DNA of 64,000 bases from Opitutia bacterium UBA3534 (lineage in GTDB: Bacteria > Verrucomicrobiota > Verrucomicrobiia > Opitutales > UBA3534): assembly GCA_002376875.1 (NCBI GenBank), contig DFOT01000012.1, forward strand, positions 34,357 to 98,356, given 5' to 3'. The notes under the pieces are model-generated. The model saw only the letters and a program-made list of their open reading frames with translations. It was not told the DNA's origin and searched no databases. Numbering within the stretch: position 1 is the stretch's first letter; the number at the start of each line of letters is the position of its first letter. Both the position numbers and the translations under genes were made by a program. Of the stretch, positions 47,488-58,950 are shown piece after piece.

Positions 47488-48576
47488 CTATTCATTTTCC
47501 AAATGCTCTTGCAAGGCTTTTTCTTGCATGTATTCCTTAGCCCAGCGTAGGACCTCAGCAACGGGCTTAATTAATTCGGCGGGGATGGCCTCCTCAAGCT
47601 CGACTTTATTATAAAGGTCATGCGCTAGGGGGACATTCTGGATGCGTGGGATCCTCTCTTTATCAGCAATTTCCATGATTTTATGGGCCAGTACCCCCAT
47701 TCCTTTGGCCACAACTTTGGGGAGCTCTTCTTCATTCTCATAGTCGTAGTATAGGGCAATGGCATAGTGAGTTGGGTTAGTCACCACAACACTTGATTTC
47801 TTAGTGTTTTGGACGGCTTCCTGCATCATGATTTCGCGGTGGATCTGCTTACGCTTACCTTTTATTTGAGGGTCCCCTTCGGATTCTTTATATTCTCGCT
47901 TAAGCTCATCTTTAGTCATTTTGAGCTCGTTCCAGTGTTGGCGCTTCTGGAACAAATAGTCCGCTACAGCTACAAGAACATAGGCTAAGATAACATAGAT
48001 CGAGAAAATCTTAAGCAATTGTGGGAGCATAGCCATCACACCTTCAATCCCTGTGGGGGGGATTTTAAAGAGCGACCCAATGAGGCTGCGGATGACGTAA
48101 AAGAGAATAACCCCCAGTAGAAGGACTTTGAAGGTCGACTTTAAGAACTCGAAGGCATTCTTTTTAGAAAAGATTTTCTTGGCCCCTTCAGCAGGATTGA
48201 GTTTTTTAAGCTCGGGTTTGAGGGGCTCCCAGGATACGAGAAAGCCTACCTGGATGATATTCGTTAAAAGAGCGGTAACAACAACAACCCCTAAAATCGG
48301 GAAACTCATCCACATGAATTTAACGGCAGTTCCCATAATCACGTTACCCATGGCTTCCTTAAAGGGCATGGTATAGAATAGCGTAGGGAGGGTGATCATC
48401 TCCATGAGGTGTTTGAACATCGAAACCCAAAATATGGAGATAAAGTAAAAGCAGGCAAAAAGAATAGCAGTTGAGTTGAAGTCTTTACTGTTAGAGACCT
48501 GACCCTTCTTGCGGGCGTCCCTAAGCCTCTTGGGTGTAGGGTCTTCAGTTTTTTCGCCAGTGGATGACTCGCTCAC
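47488..48576 (-). CDS. sctU: T3SS export-apparatus switch protein SctU (YscU/FlhB family)
   Basis: N-terminal EKTEDPTPKRLRDARKKGQV, 4 TM, NPTH autocleavage site (VVTNPTHYAIAL). Confidence 0.95.
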   Translation of the reverse strand: MSESSTGEKTEDPTPKRLRDARKKGQVSNSKDFNSTAILFACFYFISIFWVSMFKHLMEMITLPTLFYTMPFKEAMGNVIMGTAVKFMWMSFPILGVVVVTALLTNIIQVGFLVSWEPLKPELKKLNPAEGAKKIFSKKNAFEFLKSTFKVLLLGVILFYVIRSLIGSLFKIPPTGIEGVMAMLPQLLKIFSIYVILAYVLVAVADYLFQKRQHWNELKMTKDELKREYKESEGDPQIKGKRKQIHREIMMQEAVQNTKKSSVVVTNPTHYAIALYYDYENEEELPKVVAKGMGVLAHKIMEIADKERIPRIQNVPLAHDLYNKVELEEAIPAELIKPVAEVLRWAKEYMQEKALQEHLENE

Positions 48577-49364
48577 GTTAAGGTGTGTTTAAAGGTTTCG
48601 ACAAAGACTTCGTATTGCACCCATTCGCGCTGTAAGAAGCTGAAAAGGTATTTGAGGTAGATGACCAGCATGAATAACCCCACAGCACTTTTTACAGGCA
48701 TGGATAGGAAGAATACATTCAGCTGGGGTGCAAAGCGGTTAATCAGCCCAAAGCCAAACTCGGTAAGGAAAACCAGGATAACAATAGGTGCAGCTAGAAC
48801 GAATGTTTGGCGGATAATGTGGTCTGCGTATTGGAGGAAAAAAAGCGGGAAGCTAGGTTTGAGTGTGGGCAGGAAGGAGAACACAGGCCAGATCTCATAA
48901 CTCCCGTAGACAACCGCAAGCAAACTAATAAACCCACCCCCAATGAAGAAAAATGCCACCATGAGGCGCCCAAACATAAGTCCGAAAGGAGAAGTATCGT
49001 TCCCGGTTAGGGGGTCAAATACAGAGGCCATTGTCGCTCCGCGCTGATTATCAATCAAGAAGCCAATGTTTTGAGCGATCCAGAAGACACTTCCAGCTAA
49101 GTAACCTAAAAGCGCTCCAATGATAACTTCCTTGATGATGATCCCCCCGAGCTCCATTACAGGGAGTGGCTCTGCCGGCATCATCGGAACAATCATCGGG
49201 ACTAATATAAGCGAGAAGCTAATCAGTGTTGCATTACGCGAGACACCTTGGATGAATTGAGTCGCGTAGAAAGGGACCACCATGAAAAGCGCAGTGATGC
49301 GTACCATGCTTAGGAGCAAAGGGTAGACAATGGCTTTAATGGCTTCTACAGTTCCCGCATCCAT
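48573..49364 (-). CDS. sctT: T3SS export-apparatus protein SctT (YscT/FliR family)
   Basis: Polytopic membrane protein following sctS. ATG at 49364 preceded by GAGG. The ORF-track start at 49448 would overlap sctS. Confidence 0.9.
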   Translation of the reverse strand: MDAGTVEAIKAIVYPLLLSMVRITALFMVVPFYATQFIQGVSRNATLISFSLILVPMIVPMMPAEPLPVMELGGIIIKEVIIGALLGYLAGSVFWIAQNIGFLIDNQRGATMASVFDPLTGNDTSPFGLMFGRLMVAFFFIGGGFISLLAVVYGSYEIWPVFSFLPTLKPSFPLFFLQYADHIIRQTFVLAAPIVILVFLTEFGFGLINRFAPQLNVFFLSMPVKSAVGLFMLVIYLKYLFSFLQREWVQYEVFVETFKHTLT

Positions 49365-49378
49365 TGTTACTGCCTCGG

Positions 49379-49648
49379 TTAGCGTGCGATACTGGGGAAG
49401 AAGGTAAAGATGTGGAGGGTATACTCGAGTAGCTGGGAGCCTATCCACGCAGCGGTTAATAACAGGGTAAGGATGACCACGATCAACTTAATAGCAAACC
49501 CCAGTGTTTGCTCTTGGACTTGTGTTAAGGCTTGAAGTAGGCTGACCAGCACCCCTACAACTGTCGCTACAATAATAGGTGGCATAGACAGCATAAGGAC
49601 CAGGAGCAGGGCCTTAGTGGTGAAATCAAGCAGAATAGCGTAGTCCAT
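49379..49648 (-). CDS. sctS: T3SS export-apparatus protein SctS (YscS/FliQ family)
   Basis: 89-aa two-helix hairpin with the central LLQALTQVQEQTL motif. Confidence 0.92.
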   Translation of the reverse strand: MDYAILLDFTTKALLLVLMLSMPPIIVATVVGVLVSLLQALTQVQEQTLGFAIKLIVVILTLLLTAAWIGSQLLEYTLHIFTFFPSIAR

Positions 49649-57064: not shown

Positions 57065-57298
57065 TTAAGCGCTCTTCAAATTGGTGATGATTGTTTTCAG
57101 TAGAGTAGCGAATACAGTCAAGATATTGGAACGAATTTCCGAAAGACGGGTGAATTGTCCAATATCGAATTGTAGCTGTGTGAGGGAAGCTTGGCTATTT
57201 TCATCAACAGTGCTCAGGCTTTGACGAAGGGTTGCTTCAGCAGCAGCCGTTTGGTTTTTAAGGTCTTCATTGACCGTGGAGAGAGTTAGATCGCTCAT
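57065..57298 (-). CDS. sctF: T3SS needle filament subunit SctF
   Basis: 77-aa helix-turn-helix protein. The pattern ..SLTQLQFDIGQFTRLSEIRSNILTVFATLLKTIITNL resembles the YscF/MxiH/PrgI C-terminal half. Flanked by both chaperone-like genes. Confidence 0.75.
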   Translation of the reverse strand: MSDLTLSTVNEDLKNQTAAAEATLRQSLSTVDENSQASLTQLQFDIGQFTRLSEIRSNILTVFATLLKTIITNLKSA

Positions 57299-57313
57299 AG
57301 TAAAGAATAGGTT

Positions 57314-57556
57314 TTAGTTGTTTTCTTGAGTGGTGGCTGTTTCTTGGAATCCGTTCCAAGCAAATTTTACAATCGCTTGGGCTGATTCGAGTGCCTCAGA
57401 GAGGCTCTTAGCAATTTCAAATTCTTCGACAAACAAGCCTTCGGTGATTTTTGCCTCAAGCGCAGTGTTTGCTTTTTCAAGTTGAGCTAAAGTCTTATCC
57501 CGGAATTCGCCGGTTTTATCACTTTGCAGTTGTTCTTCTAGTACAGATAGATTCAT
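57314..57556 (-). CDS. yscE: YscE/PscE/CdsE-like needle co-chaperone
   Basis: 80-aa two-helix protein starting LSVLEEQLQ. Size, position (between sctD and sctF) and helical pattern resemble YscE as recalled. Confidence 0.6.
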   Translation of the reverse strand: MNLSVLEEQLQSDKTGEFRDKTLAQLEKANTALEAKITEGLFVEEFEIAKSLSEALESAQAIVKFAWNGFQETATTQENN

Positions 57557-58950
57557 TCTTCAATTTCAGTGAAGTTGTTGTTGTGGCCTACGCCAAGTGT
57601 TATGGTTTCGTCTCCTTTTCTTAAGGCAACACCTTCAGTGGATATTTCTTCGATGATATACCCTGAAGAGAGGTGTGATCCTTGGAAATAAGTTTTGCCA
57701 TTCTTTAGGATTAACCAGCGGTTGTCTCCTGCGAGGTTGATACTGGCAATCTCTGAGTCAAAATAGATACGCTCTACATCAGAAACAGAAGAGACTGTTA
57801 CCCAGTCCACCAAAGGTACAAAGGCCCCAAAGAGTTCGTCTAGGTCTGTTTTTACAAGCTCCCAACGTTTGATCATGTGGCTGTCAATAATCCCTTGAGC
57901 TACTAGCGCATTAGGCGCTGCACTCACAGTAACGACATCCTGTAGGTCGTTCTTCTTGAGCATTAATAAGGAAAGCTCTCCTACCTGATTAGCTGTAATA
58001 ACAGCATCCTCAATGTCGTCTAGGCCTGGGATGTCGGTAAGCAAGTGTTGCCGTGCACGTTCCCAGGCGCTTGGGTCCGGGTAGTAACCCTCTATCTGTA
58101 CAACCCCCAAGCCGCGTGCATGGACATTTAGGGGGAGGTTTAGGATGGCCAAGATGTCTTCGCAGGCTCTCACAAGCCCCTCTTCTGACCAAATGATAGT
58201 CGCTACATTCGGGCTAATATGCTGAAGGGTATCTCTTACTAAAGCACGGTCTTTGTCTGTTTTGACGTGCCCACTGACTACGACTTGTCCACGCTGTATA
58301 AGGACTATAGGGTCTGCAACGAGATCCATTTCATCAAGGCTCTCTTGCACGTAGTTTTGTAGTAATTGTAATTGCGTGTCAGTCACTTCCCAGGTCTTGG
58401 AGGCTCTCGGCCAGAAGACAATGGCTAGGATGAGTACTACGCTGGCCAGTGCTCCAATTGCTGGGCGTACCCAGTCCTTAGGCTCTTTCCTAAGGGCTAA
58501 CTGTCTTTTAAAAAAGTTTCTGACTTCCGTAACTGCCTCAGGTTCTTGGTTCGCTTCAGCAGCTTCATCTTGTGTCTCAGCGGAGGGGACCTCTCGCTCC
58601 AAGGATTGGATTTCTGGCGGGGTAAGTGGGGGCCACGCTTCGTCACTCGGGCCTATAACGAGGTGTGTGGTCCCAAGGGTAATGTACTGGAAGGCTTCAA
58701 TAGCAAGCGGCTCTTCCTGTTCTTCAATCGCTTGGCCGTCTAAAAATGTATTTTCTGACAGGGGGCTAATGCTTATTTGGCCTTCTGCAGAGACTGCAAG
58801 TTTAAGCTGTTGTTCAGCAACCGTAACATCGGAAAGAATGATGTCGCAGTCGGGGTTGCTTCCGATGATGATGTCTCCTTCGTTAAGGGCAATTTCTGCT
58901 CCTTGATGAGGGCCTGATAAGATTTTTAGTAAAAGATTATGAGTACTCAT
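57553..58950 (-). CDS. sctD: T3SS inner-membrane ring protein SctD (YscD/PrgH/EscD family) with N-terminal FHA-like domain
   Basis: The N-terminus LKILSGPHQGAEIALNEGDIIIGSNPDCDIILSD fits the YscD-type FHA fold. Single TM AIGALASVVLILAIVFW, followed by a ~270-aa periplasmic domain. Confidence 0.8.
   Translation of the reverse strand: MSTHNLLLKILSGPHQGAEIALNEGDIIIGSNPDCDIILSDVTVAEQQLKLAVSAEGQISISPLSENTFLDGQAIEEQEEPLAIEAFQYITLGTTHLVIGPSDEAWPPLTPPEIQSLEREVPSAETQDEAAEANQEPEAVTEVRNFFKRQLALRKEPKDWVRPAIGALASVVLILAIVFWPRASKTWEVTDTQLQLLQNYVQESLDEMDLVADPIVLIQRGQVVVSGHVKTDKDRALVRDTLQHISPNVATIIWSEEGLVRACEDILAILNLPLNVHARGLGVVQIEGYYPDPSAWERARQHLLTDIPGLDDIEDAVITANQVGELSLLMLKKNDLQDVVTVSAAPNALVAQGIIDSHMIKRWELVKTDLDELFGAFVPLVDWVTVSSVSDVERIYFDSEIASINLAGDNRWLILKNGKTYFQGSHLSSGYIIEEISTEGVALRKGDETITLGVGHNNNFTEIEE

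Follow-up and report, generated by a model that had tools for sequence, protein, structure and literature searches.

The minus strand of a 64,000-nucleotide stretch of contig DFOT01000012.1 from Opitutia bacterium UBA3534 (hereafter, the window) carries, at 47488-58950, a run of 16 consecutive, tightly packed open reading frames (ORFs) in the order SctD-E-F-G-I-J-K-L-N-O-P-Q-R-S-T-U. We read this block, with a probability of about 85%, as the intact core structural operon of a non-flagellar type III secretion system (T3SS, or injectisome) on the chromosome of an uncultured marine member of the Opitutae. In this reading, the system belongs to a PVC (Planctomycetota-Verrucomicrobiota-Chlamydiota) branch of the Ysc/Desulfovibrionales-like supergroup, has probably long been resident in its lineage, and would depend on SctC, SctV, SctW and translocators encoded elsewhere. 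All of the ORFs lie where an initial annotation of the sequence had placed them, and its description of a collinear 16-gene injectisome core is confirmed by gene identities obtained with Pfam, NCBIfam and custom hidden Markov models (HMMs).

Gene content and injectisome identity of the block

Pfam assigns 14 of the 16 genes, with matches at or above the gathering score (GA) for SctD (Yop-YscD_cpl and FHA), E, F, J, K, L, N, O, Q, R, S, T and U, and nine of the products (SctD, J, L, N, Q, R, S, T and U) exceed their NCBIfam equivalog cut-offs. SctI and SctP were assigned with HMMs built from positional orthologues in related loci. The genes, with the models that identify them, are as follows:

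57553..58950 (-): SctD, inner-membrane ring, 465 aa, with one N-terminal FHA-type domain, BON-like periplasmic domains and a Y4YQ_C/T2SSB-like C-terminus; TIGR02500, 159.2 bits vs cut-off 86; Pfam Yop-YscD_cpl, FHA, YscD_ppl_2nd/3rd, Y4YQ_C
57314..57556 (-): SctE, needle co-chaperone, 80 aa; Pfam T3SS_needle_E, 33.8 bits vs GA 22; TIGR02501, 30.9 bits, under cut-off 38.25
57065..57298 (-): SctF, needle filament subunit, 77 aa; Pfam T3SS_needle_F, 31.1 bits vs GA 29.4; TIGR02105, 23.3 bits, under cut-off 41.7
56674..57060 (-): SctG-class TPR needle co-chaperone, 128 aa; Pfam TPR_19, HrpB1_HrpK; top NCBIfam model CdsG NF052304, 37.6 bits, far below cut-off; YscG/SsaH, 22 bits
56004..56654 (-): SctI, inner rod, 216 aa, with an SctI-like C-terminal ~70 aa after a ~140-aa low-complexity N-terminal extension; custom HMM (47 positional orthologues plus YscI), 26.8 bits, E 7e-6; weak matches to NCBIfam T3SS_SctI (17.5 bits, E 0.003, residues 147-216) and Pfam T3SS_basalb_I (13.7 bits)
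55192..55983 (-): SctJ, inner-membrane ring lipoprotein, 263 aa, lipobox LLVGC, Cys27; TIGR02544, 224.2 bits vs cut-off 161.95; Pfam YscJ_FliF
54496..55188 (-): SctK, sorting-platform protein, 230 aa; Pfam YscK, 67.8 bits vs GA 22
53881..54489 (-): SctL, stator, 202 aa; PRK06937, 202.7 bits vs cut-off 159 (YscL itself, 355 bits); TIGR02499, 124.3 vs 78.7; Pfam T3SS_SCTL/FliH
52553..53881 (-): SctN, ATPase, 442 aa, Walker A AAGTGKST at 172-179, Walker-B-like VLLLMDS at 256-262; PRK06936, 769.6 bits vs 657; TIGR02546, 651.9 vs 604.75; every FliI model under cut-off; Pfam ATP-synt_ab and T3SS_ATPase_C
52059..52556 (-): SctO, central stalk, 165 aa; Pfam YscO, 72.6 bits, and YscO-like, 44.3 bits
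51352..52038 (-): SctP-like needle-length/substrate-switch protein, 228 aa, in the conserved slot between SctO and SctQ; custom HMM (29 positional orthologues), 21.2 bits, E 2e-4 (YscP comparable, 20.5 bits); no match in Pfam or NCBIfam
50311..51339 (-): SctQ, cytoplasmic ring/sorting platform, 342 aa, C-terminal SpoA (FliMN_C); TIGR02551, 127.2 bits vs 100.8; Pfam FliMN_C
49661..50314 (-): SctR, export gate, 217 aa; TIGR01102, 275.4 bits vs 208.6; fliP model 193.7, under cut-off 217.45; Pfam FliP family
49379..49648 (-): SctS, export gate, 89 aa; TIGR01403, 106.9 bits vs 76.5; fliQ model 79, under cut-off 88.9; Pfam Bac_export_3
48573..49364 (-): SctT, export gate, probable start ATG 49364 (263 aa), longest ORF from GTG 49448 (291 aa); TIGR01401, 241.7 bits vs 163.05; fliR model under cut-off; Pfam Bac_export_1
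47488..48576 (-): SctU, autocleaving switch protein, 362 aa, NPTH at 267-270; TIGR01404, 389.1 bits vs 358; flhB model 335.9, under cut-off 349.25; Pfam Bac_export_2

The signatures read directly from the sequence in the initial annotation are all present: the NPTH site, AAGTGKST, the R/S/T core motifs, the SpoA domain, LLVGC, a 77-aa needle subunit with a chaperone-like gene on either side, and the FHA-type N-terminus of SctD. SctJ, SctF and SctD, on whose recovery by profile searches that annotation had staked its case, were all recovered with the Pfam/TIGRFAM models.

A flagellar export apparatus, or a system derived from a flagellum, would share with this block the homology of its core proteins to FliI, FliP, FliQ, FliR and FlhB, and the window also encodes a methyl-accepting chemotaxis protein and a MotA/ExbB-family pair. 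However, the partner of the MotA/ExbB gene is ExbD, and all seven core export and ring proteins (SctJ, N, Q, R, S, T and U) pass NCBIfam Sct equivalog cut-offs, whereas the models for the FliI clades, FliP, FliQ, FliR, FlhB and FliF all stay below theirs. The block also holds the injectisome-specific SctF, E, G, D, K and O, together with the SctI rod recognized by the custom HMM, and every one of the 16 genes could be given an Sct role, with no FliG, FliM, FlgB, FlgC or FliE in the cluster. SctN did not branch inside the flagellar clade but was separated from FliI, to which it is 44% identical and which formed the outgroup with a bootstrap of 100. We therefore see next to no chance that the block is flagellar.

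The packing of the genes also agrees with the co-directional operon first described. Five of the 15 junctions overlap by 1-4 nt, with 4-nt overlaps at D/E (57553-57556), N/O (52553-52556), Q/R (50311-50314) and T/U (48573-48576) and a 1-nt overlap at L/N (53881), and the other ten are gaps of 3-20 nt. The S/T junction is an exception in that it depends on the start chosen for SctT: with the first possible start, GTG 49448, the two genes overlap by 70 nt, and with ATG 49364, which sits just 5' of the onset of the Pfam match, they are 14 nt apart. Directly upstream of sctD, on the same strand, are MazG and two small ORFs for single-pass membrane proteins of 132 and 137 aa without a family match (59050-60528 (-); gaps of 2, 13 and 99 nt). 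Since these three genes and the SpoU methylase, YbjN-like and Nth-like genes downstream are all co-directional with the cluster, the co-directional run comprises 22 genes rather than 16.

No frameshift was found in the 16 genes, and a second strain carries all tested genes at full length, five of the proteins being 95.6-99.8% identical at the amino-acid level.

As a side observation, ORFs in the SctP position of related loci (L001-L082; for example 11734-12888 of L015) share, in PVC bacteria, Desulfovibrionaceae, Acidobacteriota and other groups, a conserved acidic C-terminus that contains a DGRSR(N/Q) motif. The SctP-like protein of the window lacks this DGRSR tail, unlike its positional orthologues, including that of the Desulfovibrionales system. 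We know of no described function for this motif.

Placement of the system and its relation to the chlamydial machine

Identity of the window SctN to its counterparts is 70-74% for Verrucomicrobia, 70% for Nitratidesulfovibrio vulgaris, 68% for YscN, 57% for Hrp2, 55% for Rhizobiales, 54-58% for chlamydial CdsN, 50% for EscN, 49% for Hrp1 and 43% for SPI-1. Trees were constructed by neighbour-joining with a simple distance correction and 100 bootstraps; Chlamydiae were included in the SctN tree only (chlamydial J, L, R, S, T and U were left out), and the trees contained no Myxococcales sequence. The SctN tree united Ysc, Desulfovibrionales-type and PVC sequences in a clade with a bootstrap of 93 when Chlamydiae were omitted and 71 when they were present (84 taxa), and the Chlamydiae (bootstrap 100) fell outside this 84-taxon clade. 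The concatenated N+R+S+T+U tree (1288 positions) separated the Ysc/Desulfovibrionales/PVC supergroup from Rhizobiales, Hrp1 and SPI-1 at 99 and joined the window to Verrucomicrobia at 89, with Ysc grouped with Allochromatium and Competibacter outside the 18-taxon clade that holds the window (bootstrap 78). The J+L+N+R tree (998 positions) recovered a Verrucomicrobiota-only clade (88) within a PVC clade that includes Kiritimatiellia and Lentisphaeria (82), and this PVC clade was sister to the Desulfovibrionales-type clade, not nested inside it, with a joint node of 64. On these sequence comparisons, the system belongs to a PVC-specific branch of the Ysc/Desulfovibrionales-like supergroup, and within it to a Verrucomicrobiota clade. 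This placement agrees with the literature, in which non-flagellar T3SSs were found in Verrucomicrobia and a Desulfovibrionales group was defined (Abby & Rocha, PMC3459982), the T3SS genes of Verrucomicrobium spinosum were linked to those of D. vulgaris (Kamneva et al., PMC3542564), and Desulfovibrionales are listed, in a scheme of nine families, as having separated from Ysc (PMC9967039).

The nearest relatives are the Verrucomicrobiota T3SSs (the V. spinosum type; Brevifollis L028, Verrucomicrobiales L007 and L010, Opitutaceae L012), which fall in the same clade as the window (88-89) and share the D..L-N..U order. Beyond the ATPase, their proteins are only ~25-60% identical to those of the window, and Brevifollis L028 has V-C directly upstream of D, and L007 has C upstream of D, whereas the window has neither. 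Unlike the V. spinosum type, the host of the window belongs to the marine plankton, in a lineage of Opitutae from which nothing has been cultured. V. spinosum is reported to use a T3SS against invertebrate hosts (PMC3681970); our literature search found no report specific to a T3SS in Opitutae, Puniceicoccaceae or Moanabacter.

The Desulfovibrionales system, represented by the plasmid-borne locus of N. vulgaris, is collinear with the window from D to R (D-E-F-G-I-J-K-L-N-O-P-Q-R), and identities to the window are 70% for SctN, 55% for SctR, 36% for SctO and 34% for SctG, the last being a TPR gene in the same position. It differs in the length of SctD (609 aa vs 465 aa in the window) and in its surroundings, since in the Desulfovibrio locus SctD is immediately preceded by LcrH, the translocon, CesT and SctC, and an SctW...SctV group runs divergently; none of these is present in the window.

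With the Ysc family (Yersinia Ysc, Aeromonas Asc, Pseudomonas Psc), the window shares gene names, within-operon order and the E/G pair of needle co-chaperones. SctN and SctL pass the YscN-type PRK06936 and YscL-type PRK06937, the models that give YscN and YscL themselves their best scores, and the best solved-structure matches of SctN (9e58, 528 bits) and of the SctQ C-terminus (YscQ-C, 3UEP) are Ysc-type. In other respects the two diverge: YscD, YscG, YscK and YscI are barely or not alignable to their window counterparts, the accessory proteins YscH/YopR, YscX/Y, LcrG/V and YopN/TyeA gave no tblastn match in the window, and Ysc branches outside the PVC and Desulfovibrionales-type group (78 in N+R+S+T+U, weakly in J+L+N+R). 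The gene order had been described as that of Yersinia Ysc, and this applies only alphabetically, because the physical order on pYV is yscN-U, yscW, virF, yscA-L; there is also no yscH in the window. The D..L-N..U block is itself widespread, occurring in Verrucomicrobiota, Planctomycetota, Kiritimatiellia, Lentisphaeria, Desulfovibrionaceae, Acidobacteriota (Acanthopleuribacter, Sulfidibacter) and some Gammaproteobacteria.

Three other loci in the comparison were noted. Injectisome loci labelled Faecalibacterium sp. (L024) and Acutalibacteraceae (L073) cluster with Kiritimatiellia and with Desulfovibrionaceae/Sutterella, respectively, and their Firmicutes labels probably reflect binning contamination in public metagenome-assembled genomes (MAGs). 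On plasmid pUSDA123-3 of Bradyrhizobium japonicum USDA 123 (L085), a partial I-J-K-L-N-O cluster is interrupted by insertion sequence (IS) elements, and its SctN (59% identical to that of the window) is sister to the Ysc/Desulfovibrionales/PVC supergroup rather than grouping with the canonical rhizobial Rhc.

The initial annotation had also likened the order to chlamydial clusters, one of them of the form D-E-F-G..N-O-P-Q, and such a cluster was verified in three chlamydial loci, which read CesT-CdsD-E-F-G-(224-aa ORF)-N-O-P-Q-Pkn5, with a secretin after Pkn5 in two of the three (L095 and L096, not L097), and are collinear with the window block minus J-K-L. For a non-proteobacterial host, it had suggested an unfragmented relative of the chlamydial machine, probably outside current T3SS family descriptions; we weighed this as a member or sister of the Cds family kept in another PVC phylum. 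Several features speak for such a relationship. Host superphylum, E and G chaperones flanking the needle gene, and the order D-E-F-G-(~220-aa ORF)-...-N-O-P-Q are common to both, and both systems are divided, the Chlamydia T3SS having a four-cluster layout (PMC10242142). A slight resemblance to chlamydial proteins is seen in SctD, SctG and SctO: chlamydial CT664 is the top PDB match for the SctD FHA domain (3GQS, 39.8 bits vs 20.3 for YscD and 23.6 for 6UID), the window SctD is the most CdsD-like among 47 SctD proteins, CdsG is the top NCBIfam model for SctG, and the sole PDB match of SctO is chlamydial CT670 (3K29, 19.3 bits). In the reverse direction, chlamydial CdsN, D, G, O and Q have their best non-chlamydial matches in PVC and Desulfovibrionales-type loci, not in Ysc, Hrp or Rhizobiales systems, in a comparison that is biased by group size. 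A 95-aa CT664 FHA fragment searched against an index of 5.8 billion proteins returned only the PDB chain itself.

The sequence relationships, in contrast, separate the two systems. The 54-58% identity between SctN and CdsN falls short of that between SctN and YscN (68%) or the homologues of N. vulgaris (70%) and Verrucomicrobia (70-74%), the Chlamydiae form their own clade (100) outside the clade uniting Ysc, Desulfovibrionales-type and PVC sequences (71), and the CdsG and CT670 matches are far under cut-off, whereas the standard Ysc-type HMMs are passed. Architecture differs as well: CdsD has two FHA domains and CdsD_PD1/PD2/CdsD_C in 579-858 aa, and the window SctD has one FHA domain in 465 aa with no CdsD_PD match; chlamydial sctQ is followed by Pkn5 (and, in L095 and L096, a type II secretion system-like secretin), and window sctQ by sctR; J-K-L and R-S-T-U lie elsewhere in Chlamydia and in line in the window. 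Nor is the window system unfragmented, C, V and W not being at the locus. Membership in the Cds family is thus refuted, and we allow the proposal as a whole only a slim chance. The idea that the system falls outside current family descriptions fares no better, given the NCBIfam equivalog cut-offs that are passed, PRK06936 and PRK06937 included, and the presence in the literature since 2011-2012 of Verrucomicrobia T3SSs linked to Desulfovibrio (PMC3459982, PMC3542564). We read the chlamydia-like residue as ancestral features retained in a slowly evolving lineage.

A broader proposal about the chlamydial machine is speculative, and we rate it as unlikely, although not negligibly so: the injectisomes of the PVC clade, with the window operon as an intact and slowly evolving representative, may be a vertically inherited lineage from which the chlamydial T3SS arose or which is its nearest outgroup still in existence. 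The four-cluster chlamydial layout would then be a further break-up of the D..U block, which in Opitutae already stands apart from C, V and W. Current models place the gain of the chlamydial machine before the last chlamydial ancestor, and, if the proposal were true, its origin could be tested with non-parasitic relatives.

Some additional features of the chlamydial proteins were recorded. The chlamydial ORF between CdsG and CdsN (~224-231 aa; 13611-14285 in L095, 13502-14176 in L096, 12840-13535 in L097) occupies the slot of the window SctI and has a faint SctI/needle-like C-terminus (11.3 bits, E 0.5 with the SctI custom HMM; 28% identity over 32 aa to window SctF); it could be an inner-rod protein that has diverged. 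Most of the top-scoring proteins for the CT664 FHA domain are ~560-650 aa long, with two matched stretches, which are probably two FHA domains, compared with ~800-860 aa for CdsD of Chlamydiaceae; the 579-aa CdsD of L097, an environmental chlamydial MAG, is of the shorter form.

Host, residency and divided layout of the locus

The supposition that the host might be a non-proteobacterial, for example PVC, organism was borne out by GyrB, whose named relatives (74-77% identical) are all Verrucomicrobia and include Opitutales, Puniceicoccus and Oceanipulchritudo, the best matches overall reaching 80%; the host is therefore assigned to the uncultured marine Verrucomicrobiota, class Opitutae. 'Ca. 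Moanabacter tarae', a member of Opitutae known from Tara Oceans with 46% GC (PMC6256433), may be a relative. Assemblies from Tara Oceans, JGI and NCBI contain the exact proteins of the window, an identical SctN among them, on 10 or more contigs of 0.05 to >1 Mb, and the Tara Oceans contigs that point to a marine source measure 0.54-1.26 Mb. The cluster is surrounded by housekeeping genes, with SpoU methylase, YbjN-like and Nth-like genes downstream, MazG and the two small membrane ORFs upstream, and gyrB-gyrA, gcvP, lysS, uvrB and gltX farther off.

This setting bears on whether the operon is a pathogenicity island recently acquired from Desulfovibrionales or a proteobacterium. T3SSs are often transferred (PMC3459982), T3SS gene transfer between Desulfovibrio vulgaris and Verrucomicrobium spinosum was inferred by Kamneva et al. 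(PMC3542564), and the 70% identity of SctN to that of N. vulgaris would fit such an event. However, the T3SS genes are indistinguishable from the housekeeping genes on either side in GC content (p = 0.25) and in GC content at third codon positions (p = 0.89), no integrase, tRNA or IS boundary flanks the cluster, which is bordered by MazG and the SpoU methylase, and the gene tree roughly tracks host taxonomy, with the Verrucomicrobiota-only clade (88-89) inside the PVC clade (82). In addition, J, K, L, O, Q, D and G are only 22-54% identical to their closest relatives, and any transfer must therefore be ancient. A recent island is accordingly very improbable, and the T3SS appears to be long resident in the lineage.

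The locus is not complete in itself. Using Yersinia and N. vulgaris queries, tblastn found no match in the 64-kb window for SctC, SctV, SctW/TyeA, translocators, LcrH, LcrV, YscX/Y or a pilotin. LcrD gave no match for SctV, and YscC and N. vulgaris SctC gave none for the secretin; no FHIPEP gene and no Secretin-domain gene was found within 10 kb past either end, so that the absence of SctC, SctV, SctW and the translocon, which concerns the locus only, extends over 84 kb. None of C, V or W was found around SctN in 13 Opitutales/Puniceicoccales loci either. Other lineages keep these genes together, with LcrH-translocon-CesT-C immediately upstream of D in Desulfovibrionaceae, C-W-V upstream of D in Kiritimatiellia and Lentisphaeria, and V-C-D in Brevifollis. 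Because C, V and W are absent from the window, its extended flanks and the related Opitutae loci, we conclude that the Opitutae system itself is split. The machine cannot work from this locus alone, and for it to function other parts of the genome would have to supply SctV, SctC, SctW and the translocators. When metagenomes were scanned with an SctV alignment, the window's own JGI contig was not among the 80 loci listed. In three of the related MAGs (L015, L019 and L031; Opitutales/Puniceicoccales), the operon runs D...Q-R and then ends, with sctS/T/U, C and V not found within 5-7 kb downstream, a layout even more scattered than that of the window.

A different explanation for these absences is that SctC and/or SctV are truly lacking, and that the operon is a decaying relic or a periplasm-limited system like that of Myxococcales, in which secretin-less systems have been described by Abby & Rocha (PMC3459982). 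The 84 kb without SctC, SctV, SctW or translocon, and the same absence in the 13 Opitutae loci, three of which also lack S/T/U nearby, are what this explanation would predict. Yet all 16 genes are intact and keep their catalytic and processing motifs, the 95.6-99.8% identity between strains argues against decay, and the window has the needle subunit and both of its co-chaperones, whereas the Myxococcales systems are without SctF as well as secretin (PMC3459982). In Chlamydia, a scattered layout is no obstacle to function (PMC10242142), and Verrucomicrobiota of the same clade have SctC next to SctD (L028, L007), with SctV also in L028. We consider an incomplete or secretin-less apparatus unlikely, and retain the interpretation of an intact core operon whose remaining parts would lie elsewhere.

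Several results count against that interpretation. Neither SctV nor SctC, which an injectisome needs in order to work, was found in the 84 kb, and no effector, effector chaperone, translocon or regulator was identified. Scores for the SctI and SctP assignments are modest. The trees are neighbour-joining trees with a simple distance correction, and their deep nodes are weak (64 for the sisterhood of Desulfovibrionales-type and PVC systems, 24-83 for the position of Ysc). Finally, a promoter and terminator scan returned no more sites than shuffled sequence, so that the idea of a single transcript derives from gene spacing.

Predicted working, neighbouring genes and biological meaning

The analysis shows the identities of the genes, their intactness, the family placement, the phylum of the host and the local absence of C, V and W; we infer that the block is transcribed as a unit and that its products would assemble, secrete and act on a eukaryotic target, and the individual roles were taken from homologous Sct proteins. 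SctJ and SctD would form the two inner-membrane rings, and SctR, S, T and U the inner-membrane export gate, SctV not being in the locus. A cytoplasmic sorting platform of SctQ, SctK and SctL would hold the SctN ATPase with its SctO stalk. The SctE/SctG co-chaperone pair would keep SctF monomeric until it is exported to build the needle on the SctI inner rod, and, once the needle is complete, substrate specificity would be switched by SctP and by autocleavage of SctU at NPTH. Function would require SctV and the secretin encoded elsewhere.

Some neighbouring genes deserve mention. A GPP34 (Golgi phosphoprotein 3 family) domain protein is encoded at 60670-61317 (+) (Pfam, 133 bits), divergently and ~1.7 kb upstream of sctD; with its eukaryote-like lipid-binding domain beside a T3SS, it could be a candidate effector, and the GPP34 family is also found in free-living bacteria. 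Four Sel1-repeat proteins lie within ~85 kb, two of them in the window (36942-38006 (+) and 38102-38854 (+)) and two just past its right end (L091, 1014-3071, 685 aa, and 3128-3778, 216 aa); Sel1 proteins are common host-interaction factors. The YbjN-like gene, two genes downstream of sctU and co-directional with it, is a 203-aa ORF (46026-46637 (-); gaps of 22-24 nt) with a weak YbjN match (18.1 bits, below GA), YbjN being a fold family related to T3SS chaperones. Two large ORFs (15536-17356 (-), 606 aa, and 21223-23301 (+), 692 aa) have no significant Pfam family and are candidate lineage-specific proteins, and the ORF at 63418-63909 is part of a 264-aa gene that extends past the window end.

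What the window contains is an ordinary injectisome core in an ecologically interesting host, a member of a known injectisome lineage and not a chlamydial-type machine, and the operon leaves knowledge of how T3SSs work unchanged. It adds a well-assembled chromosomal example to the PVC T3SS branch, which is not named in the usual nine-family scheme (PMC9967039). Among the groups compared, this branch and the Desulfovibrionales-type loci are the closest in sequence to the chlamydial system. An abundant uncultured verrucomicrobium of the open ocean retains an intact injectisome core, and this core, together with the nearby Sel1-repeat and GPP34 proteins, hints at an undescribed interaction with a marine eukaryote, for example a protist or an alga.

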